Shown here piece by piece: positions 310 through 38,740 of a stretch of DNA of 64,000 nt. Where the stretch lies: positions 1-64,000 of the IMG/VR virus record IMGVR_UViG_3300021431_000107, one strand, 5' to 3'. Source of the stretch: a virus. Its lineage: Duplodnaviria; Caudoviricetes. Position 1 is the stretch's first letter. Every line of letters starts with the position of its first letter. The position numbers and the translations under genes were made by a program. Below the pieces are notes generated by a model, which did no database searches, had not been told where the DNA came from, and saw only the letters and a program-made list of their open reading frames with translations.

Positions 310-3300
310 TCAACCTCCATTTACAATTTTACTAACAGCAGAAGCAGAGAGACCAAACTGAGCAGCAATGTCAGCCTGAGTAACACCGTTTTGTTTGGCA
401 AGGGCTCTAATTGATGCGGCTACCGCGCTACTAATTTCATTCGCTTGTCTTGGCGTTGCACGTTTCTTAAGTTCATCAGCATCTGTATTCTCAAGAATCT
501 TCTTTAACTTCGAATCAGATATAGCACGAGCTTGAATAGCTTCCCATTCACGATCAGTTATCTCTATACGCTTCTTACTTGCTCCTACAAGTTCTCGTGC
601 TGCTCGAAGACACTGGCCTCTATATTTCTTCTTCTTGTCCGCATCTTCCTTGATTTCAGGATTAGACTCCAGTATGGACCTGAATCTAGCAGTACCGATA
701 GCTTGAGCCTGTCTTTCACGGGGAGAGTTCTTAAGAGCAATAGCAAGATCGGCATCGAGCTGCTTAACTTCTTCAGCATACTCCCGTGCCGCCTGTGGGT
801 CCCTCTTAAGCTTTGGCGTGTTAACCATTTCTCTTCTTGCTTCGTTTGCAAGAGCTTTCATATCGTTTGCATAGTTTGCATATACCACTTCGACTGGATG
901 AGGATTGGACTTAGAAGACATAAGGTTCCTAGCGTCAGTCTCGTATTTCATACGGGGGGCTTTCTCTTTAACTTCTACCTCTATCCGTCTGTTGGGGTCT
1001 GCCTGGGTTGGAGACTTCTTCATATAGGTCTCCTTCTCTTGCTTCCATATCCTCTCTCCAGTACGGGGGTCTATTCCATAGTAAGACTTACCATTAGGGT
1101 CGTCTTTCGTAGTCTCCTTCCCATCTGCCGTAAGATAGATGGTCCCCGGTTTCCTTGGAGTATCATAGCTAGGATTCTTAGCCTTAGTCATGATCGTCTG
1201 AGCCCCTCCACCAGACTGATACTTGGCTTTAAGTTCGGCAATCCTGTTATCCTTATAACACTGCTTATAGTCCAGATAGTGTTTATTAGCATCGATAACC
1301 ACCATGGCATACTTAACGGCCCTCGTCATCTCATCTTCCGTGAGATTTAGACCCCCCTCTCCGGATCCAAGGGCAGTCATATCTGCAATGAGATTAGTAA
1401 TCCTCCCCATCTCCATACCCTTATTCTTAGCCGTCATATATCGCTTATCAATAATCTTCCCATTAGCGTCATGCTTAAGCGACTCGGGTGCTCCGGGTAT
1501 TTTATATGACTTACTATCAAATCCAATAAGCCCCTCCAGTCTTGGTTTGTTTTTGATTCCAGAAGTTTTAACAGGAATGGCAACAACAGTGTCTCCGTCA
1601 AAGTCGGCACCTGATAAGGTCTCTGCTGTATAAGCATCAATGCCAATAGCATCAGGCGCATTCCTCATGAACGACTTGGCTTCAGCGTTATTCTTGTTAT
1701 TTCTAACGATAGGAATCTCGAACTTACCTTCATGCGGATACCTAATAAGCGCAAGGGTCTCTCCGTGCTCATAGTTGGGGGCATAACATTCATGAACCCC
1801 ATCAGAACCGATTTTGAGCGTAGTAAGAGGCATGATTACATGGGCCATCTGATTGTTGAACGCTTTTGCCTTTAGATGAATAGCAGATGCATCACAATCG
1901 TCGGCGAATGATTCAAGAAGCTGCCTCTTAAGAGTCGGATTAGTAAGGTTTTTGAGCTCGTTGTACTCTTCAAGCTTCTCTTTATAAGTGAGGTCAAGCT
2001 GTTTCTTTACGATCGGAACGTTCTGTTTTGCAAGAACCTGAGATGAAATGGTTTTCTTCCATTCAAGCCAGTCTCCCTGGTCATTGACTTTATTAATCAC
2101 CCTAAGTTGATCAGTCTTGTTTCCATTTTGATCAAGACAGAAAGACTGTCCACCAGCATCAAGCGGTTTGATTGTCGCTCCAAATGGATTATCGGCTATA
2201 ATATTGCCATTGATATCCCGTTCCATCTTTTTGAACACATCGTATTTGTCAGTTCCGACCTTCTTATTAGTGTTATAGACGACATCATAACCCTCTGGAA
2301 TGTCATCTGAATAATGGGCCATCCCTTTCATATAATGTGTTCCGTCTACAGCAATTCGAACCTGTGAATACATGGATCTTCCAAGCGAAATATCCTCAAC
2401 ACCTCGTCTAAGCTCAATAGTTCCGTCTTTCTCAGCTCCACCTGAGCCATCAGGATTCGTGTAATTGATGTAAACCCTTTTTGAGTCAATAGATTTCGGA
2501 GGAAGCATTCTCTGAATCTCGAGCCCATCGCCCTCAACATACGAAGTAAGCGGCTTAATAAGAGACGGATCATCTTTTAGCCGTTTCCAGTCGCCTTTTG
2601 CATCGTCGGTAGGTTCTCCAACAGTCGTTATAGTCGTATACTTACCAGGATTTCCAAGCTGCTCGACCTGAATATAATACTGTTTATACCCTTCCGCTTT
2701 TAGCATCTCAATTGCAGTTTTCATTCGCTCTCTTGAAATGTTCTTTTCAAGTTCTGCGCCCGGACCAACGTCAATGAAGTGCTTCGTTTTGAGCTCTTCC
2801 TTGATCATCTCGGCAACATTACGAGTTTTATCATATTTGATCTGCTTATCGTTTTTGAGATAGTTACGAACAGTACCTTCAGAGATGTCAAGTTGCTTAG
2901 CAATCTCAGTATTATTCATGGTCTTATGCATCTCAGGAATTTTGTTTGCATAGTAAACTTGTCTACGCTCTTTTTCCATCGATACGTGAGCTCTTAATTC
3001 AGCTGTCGACTTAAAACCAAGTTCTTTTGCAATTTCTGTTTCAGTAAGTCCATGAGCTTTTAACTCTTTTCTTGTTTTATCCAGCGGAATGTTTTCTCTT
3101 AACTCAGCAACCGATTTATATCCCAAAGCTTCTGCTATCTGTTGTTCAGTAAAACCCTTGGCCTTTAGTTCTCGTCTTCTTGCAACGTAACCAATAAGAT
3201 GCTGTCCAGGATTTTCACCAGAGCCCCATGCAAATCTTCCGGATCCAGGACCAGGAGGATCATCATCATGTCCAACACCATGATGAGCAAGATAATCGTC

Positions 3301-3396
3301 AAACGCTAACTCATTAAGGCTCTCAATCTCTTCTTTTGAAAGTTCGTTTAAGAATACGATCTCATCTAAATCTTTCTCGTAATCTGAAGAAGGCAT
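310..3396 (-). CDS. Single-subunit two-barrel RNA polymerase (YonO / cellular-RdRP-like) with N- and C-terminal HTH units
   Basis: LSGADFDGDTV catalytic loop preceded by LIRYPH (RxP); HTH-like units KGFTEQQIAEALG, HGLTETEIAKELG, MNNTEIAKQLDISEGTVRNY, GVTQADIAAQFGLSASAVSKI. Confidence 0.85.
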   Translation of the reverse strand: MPSSDYEKDLDEIVFLNELSKEEIESLNELAFDDYLAHHGVGHDDDPPGPGSGRFAWGSGENPGQHLIGYVARRRELKAKGFTEQQIAEALGYKSVAELRENIPLDKTRKELKAHGLTETEIAKELGFKSTAELRAHVSMEKERRQVYYANKIPEMHKTMNNTEIAKQLDISEGTVRNYLKNDKQIKYDKTRNVAEMIKEELKTKHFIDVGPGAELEKNISRERMKTAIEMLKAEGYKQYYIQVEQLGNPGKYTTITTVGEPTDDAKGDWKRLKDDPSLIKPLTSYVEGDGLEIQRMLPPKSIDSKRVYINYTNPDGSGGAEKDGTIELRRGVEDISLGRSMYSQVRIAVDGTHYMKGMAHYSDDIPEGYDVVYNTNKKVGTDKYDVFKKMERDINGNIIADNPFGATIKPLDAGGQSFCLDQNGNKTDQLRVINKVNDQGDWLEWKKTISSQVLAKQNVPIVKKQLDLTYKEKLEEYNELKNLTNPTLKRQLLESFADDCDASAIHLKAKAFNNQMAHVIMPLTTLKIGSDGVHECYAPNYEHGETLALIRYPHEGKFEIPIVRNNKNNAEAKSFMRNAPDAIGIDAYTAETLSGADFDGDTVVAIPVKTSGIKNKPRLEGLIGFDSKSYKIPGAPESLKHDANGKIIDKRYMTAKNKGMEMGRITNLIADMTALGSGEGGLNLTEDEMTRAVKYAMVVIDANKHYLDYKQCYKDNRIAELKAKYQSGGGAQTIMTKAKNPSYDTPRKPGTIYLTADGKETTKDDPNGKSYYGIDPRTGERIWKQEKETYMKKSPTQADPNRRIEVEVKEKAPRMKYETDARNLMSSKSNPHPVEVVYANYANDMKALANEARREMVNTPKLKRDPQAAREYAEEVKQLDADLAIALKNSPRERQAQAIGTARFRSILESNPEIKEDADKKKKYRGQCLRAARELVGASKKRIEITDREWEAIQARAISDSKLKKILENTDADELKKRATPRQANEISSAVAASIRALAKQNGVTQADIAAQFGLSASAVSKIVNGG

Positions 3397-4293: not shown

Positions 4294-4314
4294 TTTGATC
4301 ACCTCCCAAGGCAA

Positions 4315-4350
4315 AGAAATAAAGAAAGATGGGCGTACTCTAGCCCTCTC
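4315..4350 (-). terminator. Intrinsic terminator-like hairpin after the helicase gene
   Basis: GGGC-UAGAGUAC-GCCC (4331-4346) followed by AUCUUUCUUUAUUUCUUU on the minus strand. Confidence 0.55.
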
Positions 4351-4374
4351 CCTCTATTATACGCATTGTAATTT

Positions 4375-15964: not shown

Positions 15965-17098
15965 TCACACATCCCTTCTAAGTGTCATGTCTTCAGTAAA
16001 AGGCATGTCGCTACTGTCTTTCGGCTGAGGTCTCATACCCATCTTATTAGCCAGTTTCTCTTCTTCCTTTTTCTTAAGAATCGCATAGACATTACCATGA
16101 ATATTTGGAGAAAGGATAACAGTTTCATTTAGATACCCGGCAAGGAACCGATTGTTAATAGCATCATGAATACCAAGATCAACACGAGGACCGCAGCCTT
16201 TAACCCATCCTTCAATCATGGCTTCAGGATTTTCGACAGGTCCATCTTCCTTGTTATTTCTAGTCATTCCAAGAGCATCATATACATCGTTGAGAACTGC
16301 CCATCCGCGAGAGTAAACAAGGTCTTCGATATAATTTTCAGCCGCTTCAAGAGTCGGAAGATCATACATCTTTCTTCCTTTATAAATAGGAGAGGTCTGC
16401 CTAGAAAATGTGATGAAGTGGTCATGGTAGATATTTTGAGCAGCGATTTCAGAAGCTTCAAGAGGCACCTTTTTCTTTACTTTATAAGTCTCGCCGTTAT
16501 CCGGATCCTCTTCCTCAACTTCCACTTCTTTATAGCCATATTTGCACATTCTATGGCTCTCTTCACCGTTTAATTCGATATTACGCTGTTCATAGGCTCT
16601 ACAATACTCCTGTAAGCTCGTATATGCCCCTGTAAGCGCGTTTATCATGCCACCTTGAATGTTCTTAACAGCGACGAATGAGCCCATAGAAATGGCAAAT
16701 AGACCGCCTGGAAGGGCAAATAATTTAAAGCCGCGAATAAGTGTCACACCATACTCATGACGCACTGCACGGTTGATTTCCTTCCTGGTACGAGTGACAT
16801 ACGCCTTCTCAACATCTACATCTGGAAGGAACTCACCATTTTGATCAATACACTCAGGATCCACAACTACTTCCGCTTTTGCAGCTTCTACTCTATCCTC
16901 ATGATCCGCAACCAACATGTCAAGCTTACGTCCTGCAAATACAGCAGACACAATGGCAGCACCGCCAGTTACAATACCAACGACCATAAGAATCTCAGGA
17001 CTCTTCTCTTTAAGCTTAAGTCCGTTCATCCCAAGCATCTTACTCGCCTGCAAAGACCCTTTCTTTAAAAATCCCTTGATAGCATTCTCAGCTTTCAT
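15965..17098 (-). CDS. DUF6353-like membrane-anchored phage protein (paralog 1)
   Basis: EKSPEILMVVGIVTGGAAIVSAV TM segment; VLNDVYDALG C-terminal motif. Confidence 0.55.
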   Translation of the reverse strand: MKAENAIKGFLKKGSLQASKMLGMNGLKLKEKSPEILMVVGIVTGGAAIVSAVFAGRKLDMLVADHEDRVEAAKAEVVVDPECIDQNGEFLPDVDVEKAYVTRTRKEINRAVRHEYGVTLIRGFKLFALPGGLFAISMGSFVAVKNIQGGMINALTGAYTSLQEYCRAYEQRNIELNGEESHRMCKYGYKEVEVEEEDPDNGETYKVKKKVPLEASEIAAQNIYHDHFITFSRQTSPIYKGRKMYDLPTLEAAENYIEDLVYSRGWAVLNDVYDALGMTRNNKEDGPVENPEAMIEGWVKGCGPRVDLGIHDAINNRFLAGYLNETVILSPNIHGNVYAILKKKEEEKLANKMGMRPQPKDSSDMPFTEDMTLRRDV

Positions 17099-17437: not shown

Positions 17438-17504
17438 AGATCCATCCTCCTTTTATTGAAACCATATAATCTGTTTCACTAAAGGCACTGCATTTTTTAC
17501 GAGT

Positions 17505-30969: not shown

Positions 30970-31827
30970 TCACGGTTTGACTGTTGGTCTGCCACTCCAG
31001 TCTAGAACTGTAACAGATATCTGATTTATCTTCGCTGTATTATACAAATGCGGTACAAGTGCAGAGGTCATTGATAACCCTCCAAATATAAATGCTTCTG
31101 CACATCCTACTTGTGGTAGACACATCTCCGCCAAGAACTCATTGTAAGTGAAGAACGGTTCCTGTCCAGATGCCAGTCTGGTATTCATATAATTACATAC
31201 TTCCATTATTGTCTTTTCATCAGATCGGAAAACCATCCCGGTCATATGGTCATAAAATACCTGTGATCCTCCACGAGCTTGAATTATTCCATCTGGCCAA
31301 TACTCGCCAACTTCGAAAAATGGATAGTCTCTTTCTACCTTATTTTGAGCAGCCTTCTCTTGAATCTCCTGCATCTTCTCCTCTCCGACTTCCTCTTTAG
31401 TCGCCTTGAAGAGATCCTGATACATTGCATCTGATACTATTGCTGCTTCATGCCATTTTGAGATAGCCTTACCAGCGTACACGGCCATTCCAATGTTGAA
31501 CCCTGCGGTTGCTGTTGCACAGATTACTACAGGAGCCGATACAACTACGAGTTCCTTAAGTGTGTGCCTTGTTGTCTTCTTTCTCTCCTCTGCCTTTTCC
31601 TCATCAGTGAGAAATGGATCATCATTTATCTCCTCGATTTCATGTCTCTTCTCCTCAAGAATCCTGTCAACTTTCGGTCTAGCCCTCCATGTGAGAACTA
31701 CAGTAGCCGCAAGTCCAATAGTGGACCCGATTACTGTTGTAGCAGTAGAGTGCTCCATCGCTTTCGCAAATATAACGTCTGCACCCTTTTTGATTGTTGA
31801 TGGTTTGAAGATGTCTAAGAATCCCAT
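30970..31827 (-). CDS. DUF6353-like membrane-anchored protein (paralog 2)
   Basis: STATTVIGSTIGLAATVVLTWRARPK; FFTYNEFLAEMCLP. Confidence 0.55.
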   Translation of the reverse strand: MGFLDIFKPSTIKKGADVIFAKAMEHSTATTVIGSTIGLAATVVLTWRARPKVDRILEEKRHEIEEINDDPFLTDEEKAEERKKTTRHTLKELVVVSAPVVICATATAGFNIGMAVYAGKAISKWHEAAIVSDAMYQDLFKATKEEVGEEKMQEIQEKAAQNKVERDYPFFEVGEYWPDGIIQARGGSQVFYDHMTGMVFRSDEKTIMEVCNYMNTRLASGQEPFFTYNEFLAEMCLPQVGCAEAFIFGGLSMTSALVPHLYNTAKINQISVTVLDWSGRPTVKP

Positions 31828-31863
31828 AAGTTTCTCCTTTCTCTTCTGTGTGTACTTGTTTCC

Positions 31864-31995
31864 TAAAAAAAAGAAGAAGGATTATTTACTTCGTCAAACC
31901 TTTCGCATCTTTTCCGGCATTGAGAACTTTCCAAAACGTTTTCACGTGTCTCAACCCTGATGCAAGTTCAGGTTATTAGAAGTAATATAATCCCT
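31864..31995 (-). ncRNA. Candidate rod-shaped phage sRNA (about 130 nt)
   Basis: Promoter motif 32000-32024; arms 31979-31999 and 31873-31892 pair (20 bp, one G-U, one bulge); inner stems AACCU/AGGUU, UUGCAUC/GAUGCGA, UUGAGA/UCUCAA, ACGU-GAAA-ACGU; followed by a U-tract. Confidence 0.6.
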
Positions 31996-32069
31996 CTTCA
32001 CTATACCCTCTGTAGTTTTTACGAGTTGCTGTACACTGACACGTTCTCTTTGTTCACGTATAGTTCATG

Positions 32070-32864
32070 CTATTCGCTATAAATCATGTCTTCTGGATTT
32101 TGAGTTGTCGGATCTACCTGATAGAATAGACACAGCGCTTCCATTCCAGTATCATCTGTATAGATATCCATGCACTTTTCAATCCAAGGACCTCCATAAT
32201 ACGACCAACAGTAGTCCTGAGATTCATTCTCCCAGTTCCATCCGATCTTATCACCAAGAGGTTTTGGTACTCCACCGATCATTTTGATGATGAAGTTGAG
32301 TCGAACGTCAAAGTCTTTAGCAAGCTTCTCATTTGCAGCAAGAAGAGCCCAGGCAATTCTTTCAGTTGACGTAACAATATACTGATCAGTATAAGGTTCG
32401 TAAACGAGAATCTTACCTGTCCCCTCACGAACTTCTCTGTACTGAGACGCTGTTGGCTTCTCTTTGCTTCTTTTAATCTGCTCCTTTACGGTTTCTTCAC
32501 GAATCTCATTCGCTTTCTCTTCTCCTACTACATCTTCCATCTTTTTATCGAGACCTACGAACTTATCTTTCCACATAGCAGCTACACCGGCAAGAGCTAC
32601 TTCTTTCCCAACGTGTATCCTATCAGACCCAATGATAGCTCCAATAGTTAAAGTAGCAGATAGTCCAGCTTTCCAGTAGCATTTTACATACTGCTTAATT
32701 TTCTCTTTAGTATCAAGATCCGGATCAATAGTCACATACGCCTGAACACCTGCCTTTGATGAGAGATAAGCAGTTGTTCCAACTCCAACACATGCGGCTG
32801 CTGCACAGATACTTCCTGATTTGTCCTTTAACAGGTTGAGTAAATTATCTATTTTGAACTTCAT
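32070..32864 (-). CDS. DUF6353-like membrane-anchored protein (paralog 3)
   Basis: DKSGSICAAAACVGVGTTAYLSSKA; VYEPYTDQY; IGWN. Confidence 0.55.
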   Translation of the reverse strand: MKFKIDNLLNLLKDKSGSICAAAACVGVGTTAYLSSKAGVQAYVTIDPDLDTKEKIKQYVKCYWKAGLSATLTIGAIIGSDRIHVGKEVALAGVAAMWKDKFVGLDKKMEDVVGEEKANEIREETVKEQIKRSKEKPTASQYREVREGTGKILVYEPYTDQYIVTSTERIAWALLAANEKLAKDFDVRLNFIIKMIGGVPKPLGDKIGWNWENESQDYCWSYYGGPWIEKCMDIYTDDTGMEALCLFYQVDPTTQNPEDMIYSE

Positions 32865-33015: not shown

Positions 33016-33872
33016 CTATATGCATTTGAAATTACCTTCTTTTTTATACGTGATATACGTGACCCACTTATCAATGACTGCTACTAATTCACGATACATA
33101 TCATTGTAAAATACTTTATCGTCATTAAGTGAAGCATTTCTTATAATGCGAATTTGTTTGTTCTTGTCGACTTTGATTTCATAGTTAGCAAAAATAAAGT
33201 CGCATATCATTTTAAGACTGTCGTCGATCTTCCAAATAGGACTGTGTGACATCTTTAACGCCTTCAGATTGTAAAAGCCCTTATTACAAAAATCTTTTTC
33301 TAAAAGTGTGCATAATTTTTTCGCCTGATACTCAGTGAAACAAACATTGCACTTGTATATTATATCGTTTTGCCTTACTTCTTTCTCTTCTTTAATTTTC
33401 TGCTCAAGAGCGATCAGTTCTTTGTCAGAAAAAGTTGTCAAATCAATCATTTTGAACCTCCTTTACTTTTATACATAATCCACTTGTCAATAACTGTCAG
33501 CATCTCCTGATACATATCGTTGTAGTCTTCTTTGTCATCAATTAAGAGACGAGAACCGTTTCTTCGAATCTTTTGATGTCCATATTTATCAGGGGCCATT
33601 TCAAAGTTATCGAAAACATAATCACAAATAATAAGAAGATATTTACTGATTGCATGAATCGGTTCATAGATATTATAGTTACTCTGCTTTACATCCACAC
33701 CATGCTCTTTAAGAACCTTAGTGAAATACTCTGTCATATCTTTATACTGCTCTTCTGATGGATGAATATTAGATTTATAGAGAAGTCCTCCCTGTCTCTT
33801 TTCTTTCTCTTCTTTGATCTTCTTCTCAAGATCAATCAGTTCTTTGTCAGTGAAAGCAGTTAAATCAGTCAT
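33016..33872 (-). CDS. Tandem paralog pair (33016-33450, 33447-33872)
   Basis: MIDLTTFSDKELIALEQKIKEEKE vs MTDLTAFTDKELIDLEKKIKEEKE; both end YNDMYxExxxVIDKW. Confidence 0.75.
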
Positions 33873-34239
33873 TTTGATCCTCCTCTTCGTCGTATTCGTC
33901 AATCTCACTAAACAGTCCGCCTACTTCTTCAATGCCTTCATACTCCGGTTTTACTCTGTTTGCCATCGATTCGTAATTTGACGGATAAATACAATCTTTG
34001 AGTTCGCACTCCTCATAGTAATCATCGATCTCGCAAGGTATGCCAACTTCGTCAAGAAGATACTTCGAAGGTTCAGAATATCCACAATATGCACACTCTG
34101 GATAGAATTCTGGATTATTCCACCTTTCAAATCCGTGTAAAGCGATTCTTTTAGCCCTCTCATAGTCCTTTTCATCTTCTACCTTAACGACAAAGCCAAT
34201 TCCTGGATTCGTATCACTAACAACGGCAAATGCTTTCAT
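33865..34239 (-). CDS. Hypothetical acidic protein
   Basis: GGAGGTTCAAAATG start. Confidence 0.6.
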   Translation of the reverse strand: MKAFAVVSDTNPGIGFVVKVEDEKDYERAKRIALHGFERWNNPEFYPECAYCGYSEPSKYLLDEVGIPCEIDDYYEECELKDCIYPSNYESMANRVKPEYEGIEEVGGLFSEIDEYDEEEDQND

Positions 34240-38341: not shown

Positions 38342-38622
38342 AAAGAAAAAAAACAGATTGTAGAGAATCCGTTCAACTTCCTTTTCCTTCAAAAGCTTAA
38401 TCTTTTTCAAGATCCTTCATCAATCTACAATAACCATAGGTGATTAGCCCTTAGGTCACTGTAATCAACAGTCTGCCTGGTAATATCCATTTTATCGATC
38501 GTCACATCGTCATATGCGGATATCTTACATTTTCGGTGCATCCAACCGCGACCTCGTTCTAGCTCACAGATTTGACTAATAATCTGCCGGTCCTTAACAT
38601 TCATATGATGAATATTACCTTT
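38342..38622 (-). ncRNA. Candidate multi-stem structured ncRNA (about 280 nt)
   Basis: Promoter motif 38629-38653, terminal U8 tract; stems 38608-38619/38479-38490 (12 bp), CAUAUG pair, GCAGAUU/AAUCUGU, CGGU/ACCG, ACUGU/ACAGU, 38424-38431/38357-38364 (8 bp), GAUCUU-GAAA-AAGAUU; only a weak-SD 59-codon ORF. Confidence 0.55.
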
Positions 38623-38740
38623 ATCTTCATTATAAGTGATGTAATTTTTACGATTGCTCAGTACCCTCGCACGGTCAAACTCGTTCCTCGTTTAACACGA
38701 AAATAAGAAGCCACTGTATATTTCACAGTGGCCTCATCTA

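Follow-up and report, generated by a model that had tools for sequence, protein, structure and literature searches.

Between two related genes of a phage genome, a preliminary description drawn from the letters alone had placed a rod-shaped RNA of about 130 nt with its own promoter, and had offered for it the roles of an RNA polymerase (RNAP) decoy akin to 6S RNA, an RNase III substrate or a ligand of a defence protein. This raises two questions. First, is the rod an RNA in its own right, or does it belong to the signals that govern transcription of the genes around it? Second, which part of the element is kept when the genome is compared with its relatives? The window, the whole stretch of DNA analysed here, comprises the first 64 kb (64,000 nucleotides) of an 82,740-bp virus record (IMGVR_UViG_3300021431_000107) rated as complete by CheckV.

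All genes surrounding the hairpin are encoded on the minus strand. Two paralogous genes flank the intergenic interval 32069..31828. Each of them matches PF19880/DUF6353 (with E values of 2.4e-32 and 9.8e-21) as well as phrog_2152, so the Pfam matches on both sides agree with the earlier placement between two DUF6353-like genes. Read along the minus strand, the interval consists of a 45-nt spacer, the 25-nt promoter motif, the 127-nt hairpin, a run of eight U and 37 nt carrying a Shine-Dalgarno sequence (SD), followed by the ATG at 31827 (Table 1). The stop codon of the upstream paralog is 70 nt ahead of the hairpin. The minus strand encodes a third DUF6353 paralog, of 377 aa, at 15965..17098; the gene preceding it has a promoter upstream, at 17502, with the same flanks as promoter 32024. 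Two adjacent genes at 33016..33908 on the minus strand, encoding 144 and 153 aa, have a common 84-bp stretch that is about 86% identical, and because of this shared stretch they are regarded as tandem paralogs.

Table 1. Positions of the features at the promoter-hairpin locus.
Feature	Position	Strand	Remarks
Promoter motif	32000..32024	minus	TCG box 32024..32022, CA 32012..32011, hexamer TATAGT 32005..32000
Rod-like hairpin, 127 nt, 45 pairs	31873..31999	minus	basal 5' arm 31999..31979 paired with 3' arm 31892..31873
Run of 8 U	31865..31872	minus	abuts the last hairpin pair (31873); together with the hairpin an intrinsic-terminator-like signal
37-nt spacer with good SD of the downstream gene	31828..31864	minus	no promoter-like site
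Downstream DUF6353 gene, 285 aa	30970..31827	minus	opens a tightly packed block reaching about 28747
Upstream DUF6353 paralog, 264 aa	32070..32864	minus	closes the block begun at promoter 35009
19-codon GTG micro-ORF within the rod	31886..31945	minus	judged non-coding: no SD, missing in L006

The minus-strand sequence 31999..31873 folds into a single closed, long imperfect hairpin with a minimum free energy (MFE) of -44.6 kcal/mol, the mean of its shuffled versions being -25.6 kcal/mol (z = -5.28) and an equal or better fold being reached in none of 200 shuffles. The rod shape is thereby confirmed, and the pairs of the MFE structure have a mean probability of 0.92. The 161-nt span given in the preliminary description yields z = -4.39 for the minus strand and z = -5.95 for the plus strand. 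The basal helix contains 20 pairs with one bulged A and one G.U pair (pair 6); it is A+U-rich, the base of the hairpin being at most moderately G+C-rich. Beyond the basal helix there are three more helices with internal loops between them, either small (4x4 and 4x4) or one-sided (7-8 nt), and the apex is formed by a 4-bp stem with a GAAA loop (31947..31936), so that the computed fold reproduces the nested helices, internal loops and GAAA-capped apex described before. The size of the fold is 127-135 nt. The only open reading frame inside it had been described as 19 codons with a GTG start and a poor SD, which is indeed the case, the start at 31945 having no SD; with no SD and no counterpart in L006, it was rejected as a peptide gene.

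The plus strand folds about as well as the minus strand. The 20-bp basal pairing had been described as having a wobble on the minus strand only; this holds for the basal helix but not for the whole fold, in which three G.U pairs are present on the minus strand and four on the plus strand. Asymmetry of G.U pairs was therefore rejected as evidence for the strand of the RNA, and since these counts fail to separate the strands, the strand was assigned from the context, namely the promoter, the U tract and the direction of the genes. A comparison with covariance models gave no match: no Rfam family reaches its gathering score in the window, a permissive search of 31600..32300 (E<=10) returned nothing, including no 6S model, and the riboswitch, T-box and leader families of Rfam have no match in the window. 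A scan for tRNA and tmRNA was negative as well.

The promoter that had been proposed for this RNA turned out to be better founded than a single site could be, as 32024..32000 is one of about 25 copies of a motif found throughout the phage. The motif, which was recognised starting from a weak second match of the element inside its own genome, consists of a TCG box, 13 bp and a TATAAT-like hexamer, with an invariant CA five bases ahead of the hexamer and no -35 element. In a pattern search the copies were co-oriented (minus strand) from 4380 to 45584, with a handful of poor matches elsewhere. Nearly every other copy is followed by an SD and a start codon within 20-50 nt, many copies are preceded by the U tract of a terminator, and two purines stand directly after the hexamer in 25 of the 25 copies. 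At promoters 44131 and 44781 the SD begins 3-4 nt past the hexamer, and weak terminators are located just upstream. In the middle promoters of T4, the MotA box is 12 +/- 1 bp from the sigma-70 -10 element (PMC2988021). The phage motif is similar to them in having an upstream box 13 bp from a TATAAT-like hexamer and no -35 element, and differs from them in that the sequence of its box is unrelated.

A gene at 310..3396 (minus strand), located in an operon driven by promoter 4380, encodes a protein of 1028 aa with a DFDGD motif at residue 598 and Pfam hits to sigma-70 region 4/HTH domains at both ends. Judged from its sequence, the product may be a single-chain RNA polymerase of the YonO type that carries its own DNA readers, and such a DFDGD polymerase with HTH domains may read the promoter motif, instead of a MotA/AsiA-type system. 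Promoter 4380 itself is followed, from the first base past the hexamer, by a 13-bp purine/pyrimidine hairpin and then by a U-rich stretch (4355..4305, minus strand); this hairpin precedes the SD of the helicase-nuclease-polymerase operon, and its fold is not significant against shuffles (z = -1.4). Another unit running from a promoter to a U tract, at 38653..38342 on the minus strand, holds a 59-codon ATG open reading frame (38425..38604) and may encode a small protein instead of a non-coding RNA.

Relatives were contigs at several distances, obtained by protein searches with both flanking genes. The long form of the hairpin is present in four assemblies, including another genomic background (L008). 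The rod is identical in L010; in L011 it is about 98% identical over the aligned interval, and the apical GAAA hairpin is broken. In L008 and L009 it is nearly unchanged, with one C-to-T substitution turning a G-C pair of the basal helix into G.U. The U tract is U6 in L008 and L011 vs U8 in the window. Identity between the window and L008 is confined to a block of 370 bp that starts at the promoter and takes in 175 nt of the downstream gene, outside which it drops to 40-70%. Because this block covers coding sequence too, it points to mosaic exchange, not to conservation specific to the RNA, and the near-identical rod in L008 was accordingly rejected as a sign of selection.

The most telling case is L006/L007, an 83-kb relative that shares with the window the promoter and the beginning of the 5' arm, its upstream gene being 94% identical. 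Here the inner ~100 nt of the rod are missing, and a clean indel of about 107 bp within the loop accounts for the difference from the window; what is left is a 12-bp hairpin with an 8-nt loop and the U tract, the base of the stem being kept. The break points of mosaicism between related phages (window 32024 and 31993; L008, L006) coincide with the promoter-hairpin unit, in that the identity block of L008 starts at the promoter and the identity with L006 breaks inside the hairpin, which suggests that the unit serves as a recombination joint. A second copy of the insert was found neither in this genome nor, when the inner 111 nt were compared with it, in a related 88-kb phage. In IMG/VR, exact searches for a 21-mer, a 15-mer and a 16-mer of the element gave chance hits only, a phage DNA database searched in distant mode gave no match to the element, the downstream protein as a query in IMG/VR returned nothing, and a scan of genome contigs with protein alignment revealed no prophage relatives.

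When more distant relatives are included, a common layout becomes apparent. In at least eight sequence-distinct relatives, L006/L007 among them, the hexamer is followed after 0-3 nt by a hairpin, then by a U-rich tract, an SD and the start codon of a DUF6353 gene; in L066/L083/L084, L069, L086, L087/L088/L067, L089 and L090 the ATG comes 35-46 nt after the U-rich tract. Six lineages have the first base of the stem 0 nt past the hexamer and one has it 3 nt past, with energies of -9.8 to -16 kcal/mol, and the U tract is present in all. These hairpins are ordinary terminator-type stems of 8-12 bp, the exceptions being the rod of the window and L069, where the hairpin (1956-2022; -24.8 kcal/mol, z = -5.25) is a 67-nt Y shape whose closing stem of 11 bp bears two inner hairpins. 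The sequences of the stems are unrelated between lineages, their arms being internally complementary: when arms were swapped in folding, cognate arms gave a mean of -13.8 kcal/mol vs -5.3 kcal/mol for non-cognate ones. Pairing is thus kept across differing stems, and the micro-ORF is missing in L006.

The layout is specific. It was found at one of 47 hexamer candidates in this genome, and one true case was found among 18 in L006. The unit accompanies the downstream DUF6353 gene, also in L067, L086 and L087, where the upstream neighbour is not a DUF6353 gene. L003 and L085 are without the layout and have a small ORF in its place; the rod shows no homology to this ORF or to the insert of L069. 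As the relatives share the layout but not the rod, we consider it probable that what is conserved is an intrinsic terminator, or a leader hairpin, coupled to a promoter, with the rod being an expansion of its loop specific to this lineage.

The hairpin of the window has much of what characterises an intrinsic terminator. It is stable, the U8 follows at once after its last pair at 31873, as is the case in all related lineages, and it is located at the end of a co-directional transcription unit. The ordinary terminators of the phage, which are placed ahead of promoters, likewise combine a 5' base rich in purines, a 3' base rich in pyrimidines and a U tract. A compact G+C-rich stem with a short loop is absent from the window, where the hairpin spans 127 nt, and is present in L006, L083, L087, L089 and L090. 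A terminator scan allowing only loops of 3-8 nt misses the hairpin 31999..31873, which is the sole terminator-like site found by our own scan between 36847 and 28259. The locus also has the features of an attenuator or leader, with a promoter upstream, a terminator in the leader and a downstream gene that has no promoter of its own. No promoter-like site was found in 31864..31828, so that expression of the downstream operon depends on polymerases passing the U tract; as the scan found no other terminator between 36847 and 28259, the hairpin both ends the block driven by promoter 35009 and forms part of the leader of the block that follows. A competing helix that could act as an antiterminator is not evident in the computed folds, and no factor was identified.

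How would such a unit work? Transcripts of the upstream block, from promoter 35009, would end at the hairpin, with the full rod as their 3' end, and transcripts from promoter 32024 would begin in or at the 5' arm. The precise start may be placed in two ways. In the first model, transcription would start about 7 nt past the hexamer, in accordance with sigma-70 geometry, and the terminator would stop upstream read-through only, which would explain why the stem abuts the hexamer. With a start at about the seventh base, the relatives lose their short hairpins or retain only weak ones (0 to -7 kcal/mol), whereas the window keeps the rod and 14 basal pairs (-34.1 kcal/mol, z -3.4), followed by a U-rich tail. 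In the second model, the start would be the conserved purine directly after the hexamer, all lineages would form the whole hairpin, and the unit would act as an attenuator, either constitutive or relieved by a factor. In favour of the second model are promoters 44131 and 44781, where the short distance from hexamer to SD mentioned above argues against sigma-70 spacing. Under both models a stable RNA of about 125-135 nt would be released in this lineage and the read-through fraction would express the DUF6353 operon; a discrete RNA of about 130 nt is thus probably made, as far as the modelled unit goes.

Three points count against the terminator reading. The hairpin, with its 127 nt and a base of merely moderate G+C content, far exceeds typical intrinsic terminators; a terminator placed directly behind a promoter is wasteful in the absence of regulation; and the insert may have its own use, since the long form occurs in four assemblies and in the background of L008 as well. 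Several other explanations have to be weighed.

Stem-loops at the 5' end are known to protect Firmicute mRNAs, and the hairpin could likewise shield the DUF6353 operon mRNA from a 5'-exonuclease as a stabilising stem-loop at its 5' end, in which case the U-rich tract would be incidental or a stand-by region for ribosomes. The stem that begins at the first base past the hexamer in six lineages is what one would expect from this, the two purines after the hexamer in all 25 promoters could mark the start site, and promoter 4380 is also directly followed by a 13-bp hairpin. However, a long U-rich tract follows the stem in every lineage and the stems resemble ordinary terminators of the phage, neither of which is needed by a stabiliser. 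We consider this explanation unlikely.

Alternatively, the rod might be an independent trans-acting phage sRNA, transcribed from promoter 32024 and ended at the U8, that acts on a partner of the host or the phage, the terminator being its mere origin. The partner could be RNAP, in the manner of 6S RNA, RNase III or another dsRNA-binding protein for which the rod serves as a sink, or a defence protein. It has its own promoter and a U tract, both of its ends are paired and its fold is very stable; moreover, the long form is nearly unchanged in L008, L010 and L011, the basal substitution in L008 replaces G-C by G.U, and a second lineage, L069, likewise has an enlarged loop in the form of its Y shape. 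Conservation beyond the terminator stem, which would mark a stand-alone sRNA, was however not found: L006/L007, though a close relative, has no inner rod, and plain short hairpins stand in all other lineages. In addition, the change in L011 breaks the apical GAAA hairpin, the identity with L008 belongs to a mosaic block that includes coding sequence, and there are no further copies in this genome or in the related 88-kb phage. Complementarity to translation-start regions is not above that of shuffles either, the best duplex of the rod with 196 such regions of the phage being -33.6 kcal/mol against a shuffle mean of -35.3 kcal/mol, so that no target signal emerged. For the 6S-like decoy in particular, which the preliminary description had put forward, the absence of an Rfam 6S match at E<=10, of a two-sided central bubble and of conservation of the rod all speak against it. 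The proposed RNase III substrate fared better in part, since 20 pairs with one bulge make up the near-continuous helix of about 20 bp that such a substrate calls for; RNase III may thus cut the 20-bp basal helix, on the modelled fold and in this lineage only. As a whole, a trans-acting role for the rod is without positive support, and an independent sRNA is improbable.

A bolder version is that the rod is a true trans-acting RNA born by expansion of the terminator loop and made in bulk from promoter 32024, both of its ends being paired, to act as a decoy, whether for RNAP, for a defence sensor or for an enzyme of the host that binds dsRNA, or, as a related option, that the unit discriminates between polymerases, with host RNAP stopping and the flap-less DFDGD polymerase reading through; we give this only a small chance. 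Least probable is a palindrome that matters at the DNA level and has no RNA role, either a selfish or slippage-derived insertion in the terminator loop or a site of recombination or binding, for although both strands fold equally well, the indel of about 107 bp separating the window from L006 is a clean one within the loop and junctions of mosaicism fall at the element, the insert was not found a second time in this genome, the related phage or IMG/VR (exact 16-mer), and the element lies within a transcribed unit and hence becomes RNA in any case.

The element is therefore best described, under the promoter-coupled terminator or leader hairpin preferred here, as a regulatory junction and not as a new class of RNA. 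Diverse uncultured phages have kept, before one gene family, a promoter directly adjoining the 5' arm of a terminator whose stem co-varies, and this abutment suggests either compact insulation from upstream read-through or a gene-specific attenuator. In two lineages the loop of the terminator is enlarged to a big structured RNA, and a phage sRNA could plausibly begin to evolve in this way. The unit also provides a handle on the transcription start of the unusual promoter class of this phage.

How does the junction compare with known systems? With 6S RNA (RF00013 and relatives) it shares an irregular rod-like RNA with paired ends. Unlike 6S RNA, the rod is only about 135 nt long vs about 180-200 nt, a difference in length already noted in the preliminary description, has no large two-sided bubble and no model match, and is not conserved in close relatives. 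Processing hairpins cut by RNase III are known in phage early transcripts, namely in the early region of T7 and in SP82/SPO1 of Bacillus. They too are long, imperfect intergenic hairpins with internal loops and a near-continuous helix of about 20 bp; they are, however, without a U tract and an abutting promoter, and the stems of the related lineages here, at 8-12 bp, are too short for RNase III.

The PR'-tR' unit of lambda gives rise to a 194-nt "6S" leader transcript and is read through after loading of Q. In both cases a short transcript without coding function results from a promoter with a terminator close behind it, and genes farther downstream are reached only by read-through, with the difference that an accessory gene block lies downstream here instead of the late genes, that no Q-like protein or binding site was identified, and that the terminated RNA would be only 30-45 nt in relatives of this phage. 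The intrinsic terminators of Firmicute phages and their hosts are similar in having a hairpin followed by a U tract, a purine-rich 5' and pyrimidine-rich 3' base, and a position at the end of a gene block. In contrast to their 20-40 nt, the hairpin here measures 127 nt, and the promoter of the next unit is upstream and abuts the 5' arm, whereas promoters of this phage normally follow terminators. What sets it apart from ordinary intrinsic terminators and leaders is thus the unusual size of the hairpin and its unusual position relative to the promoter.
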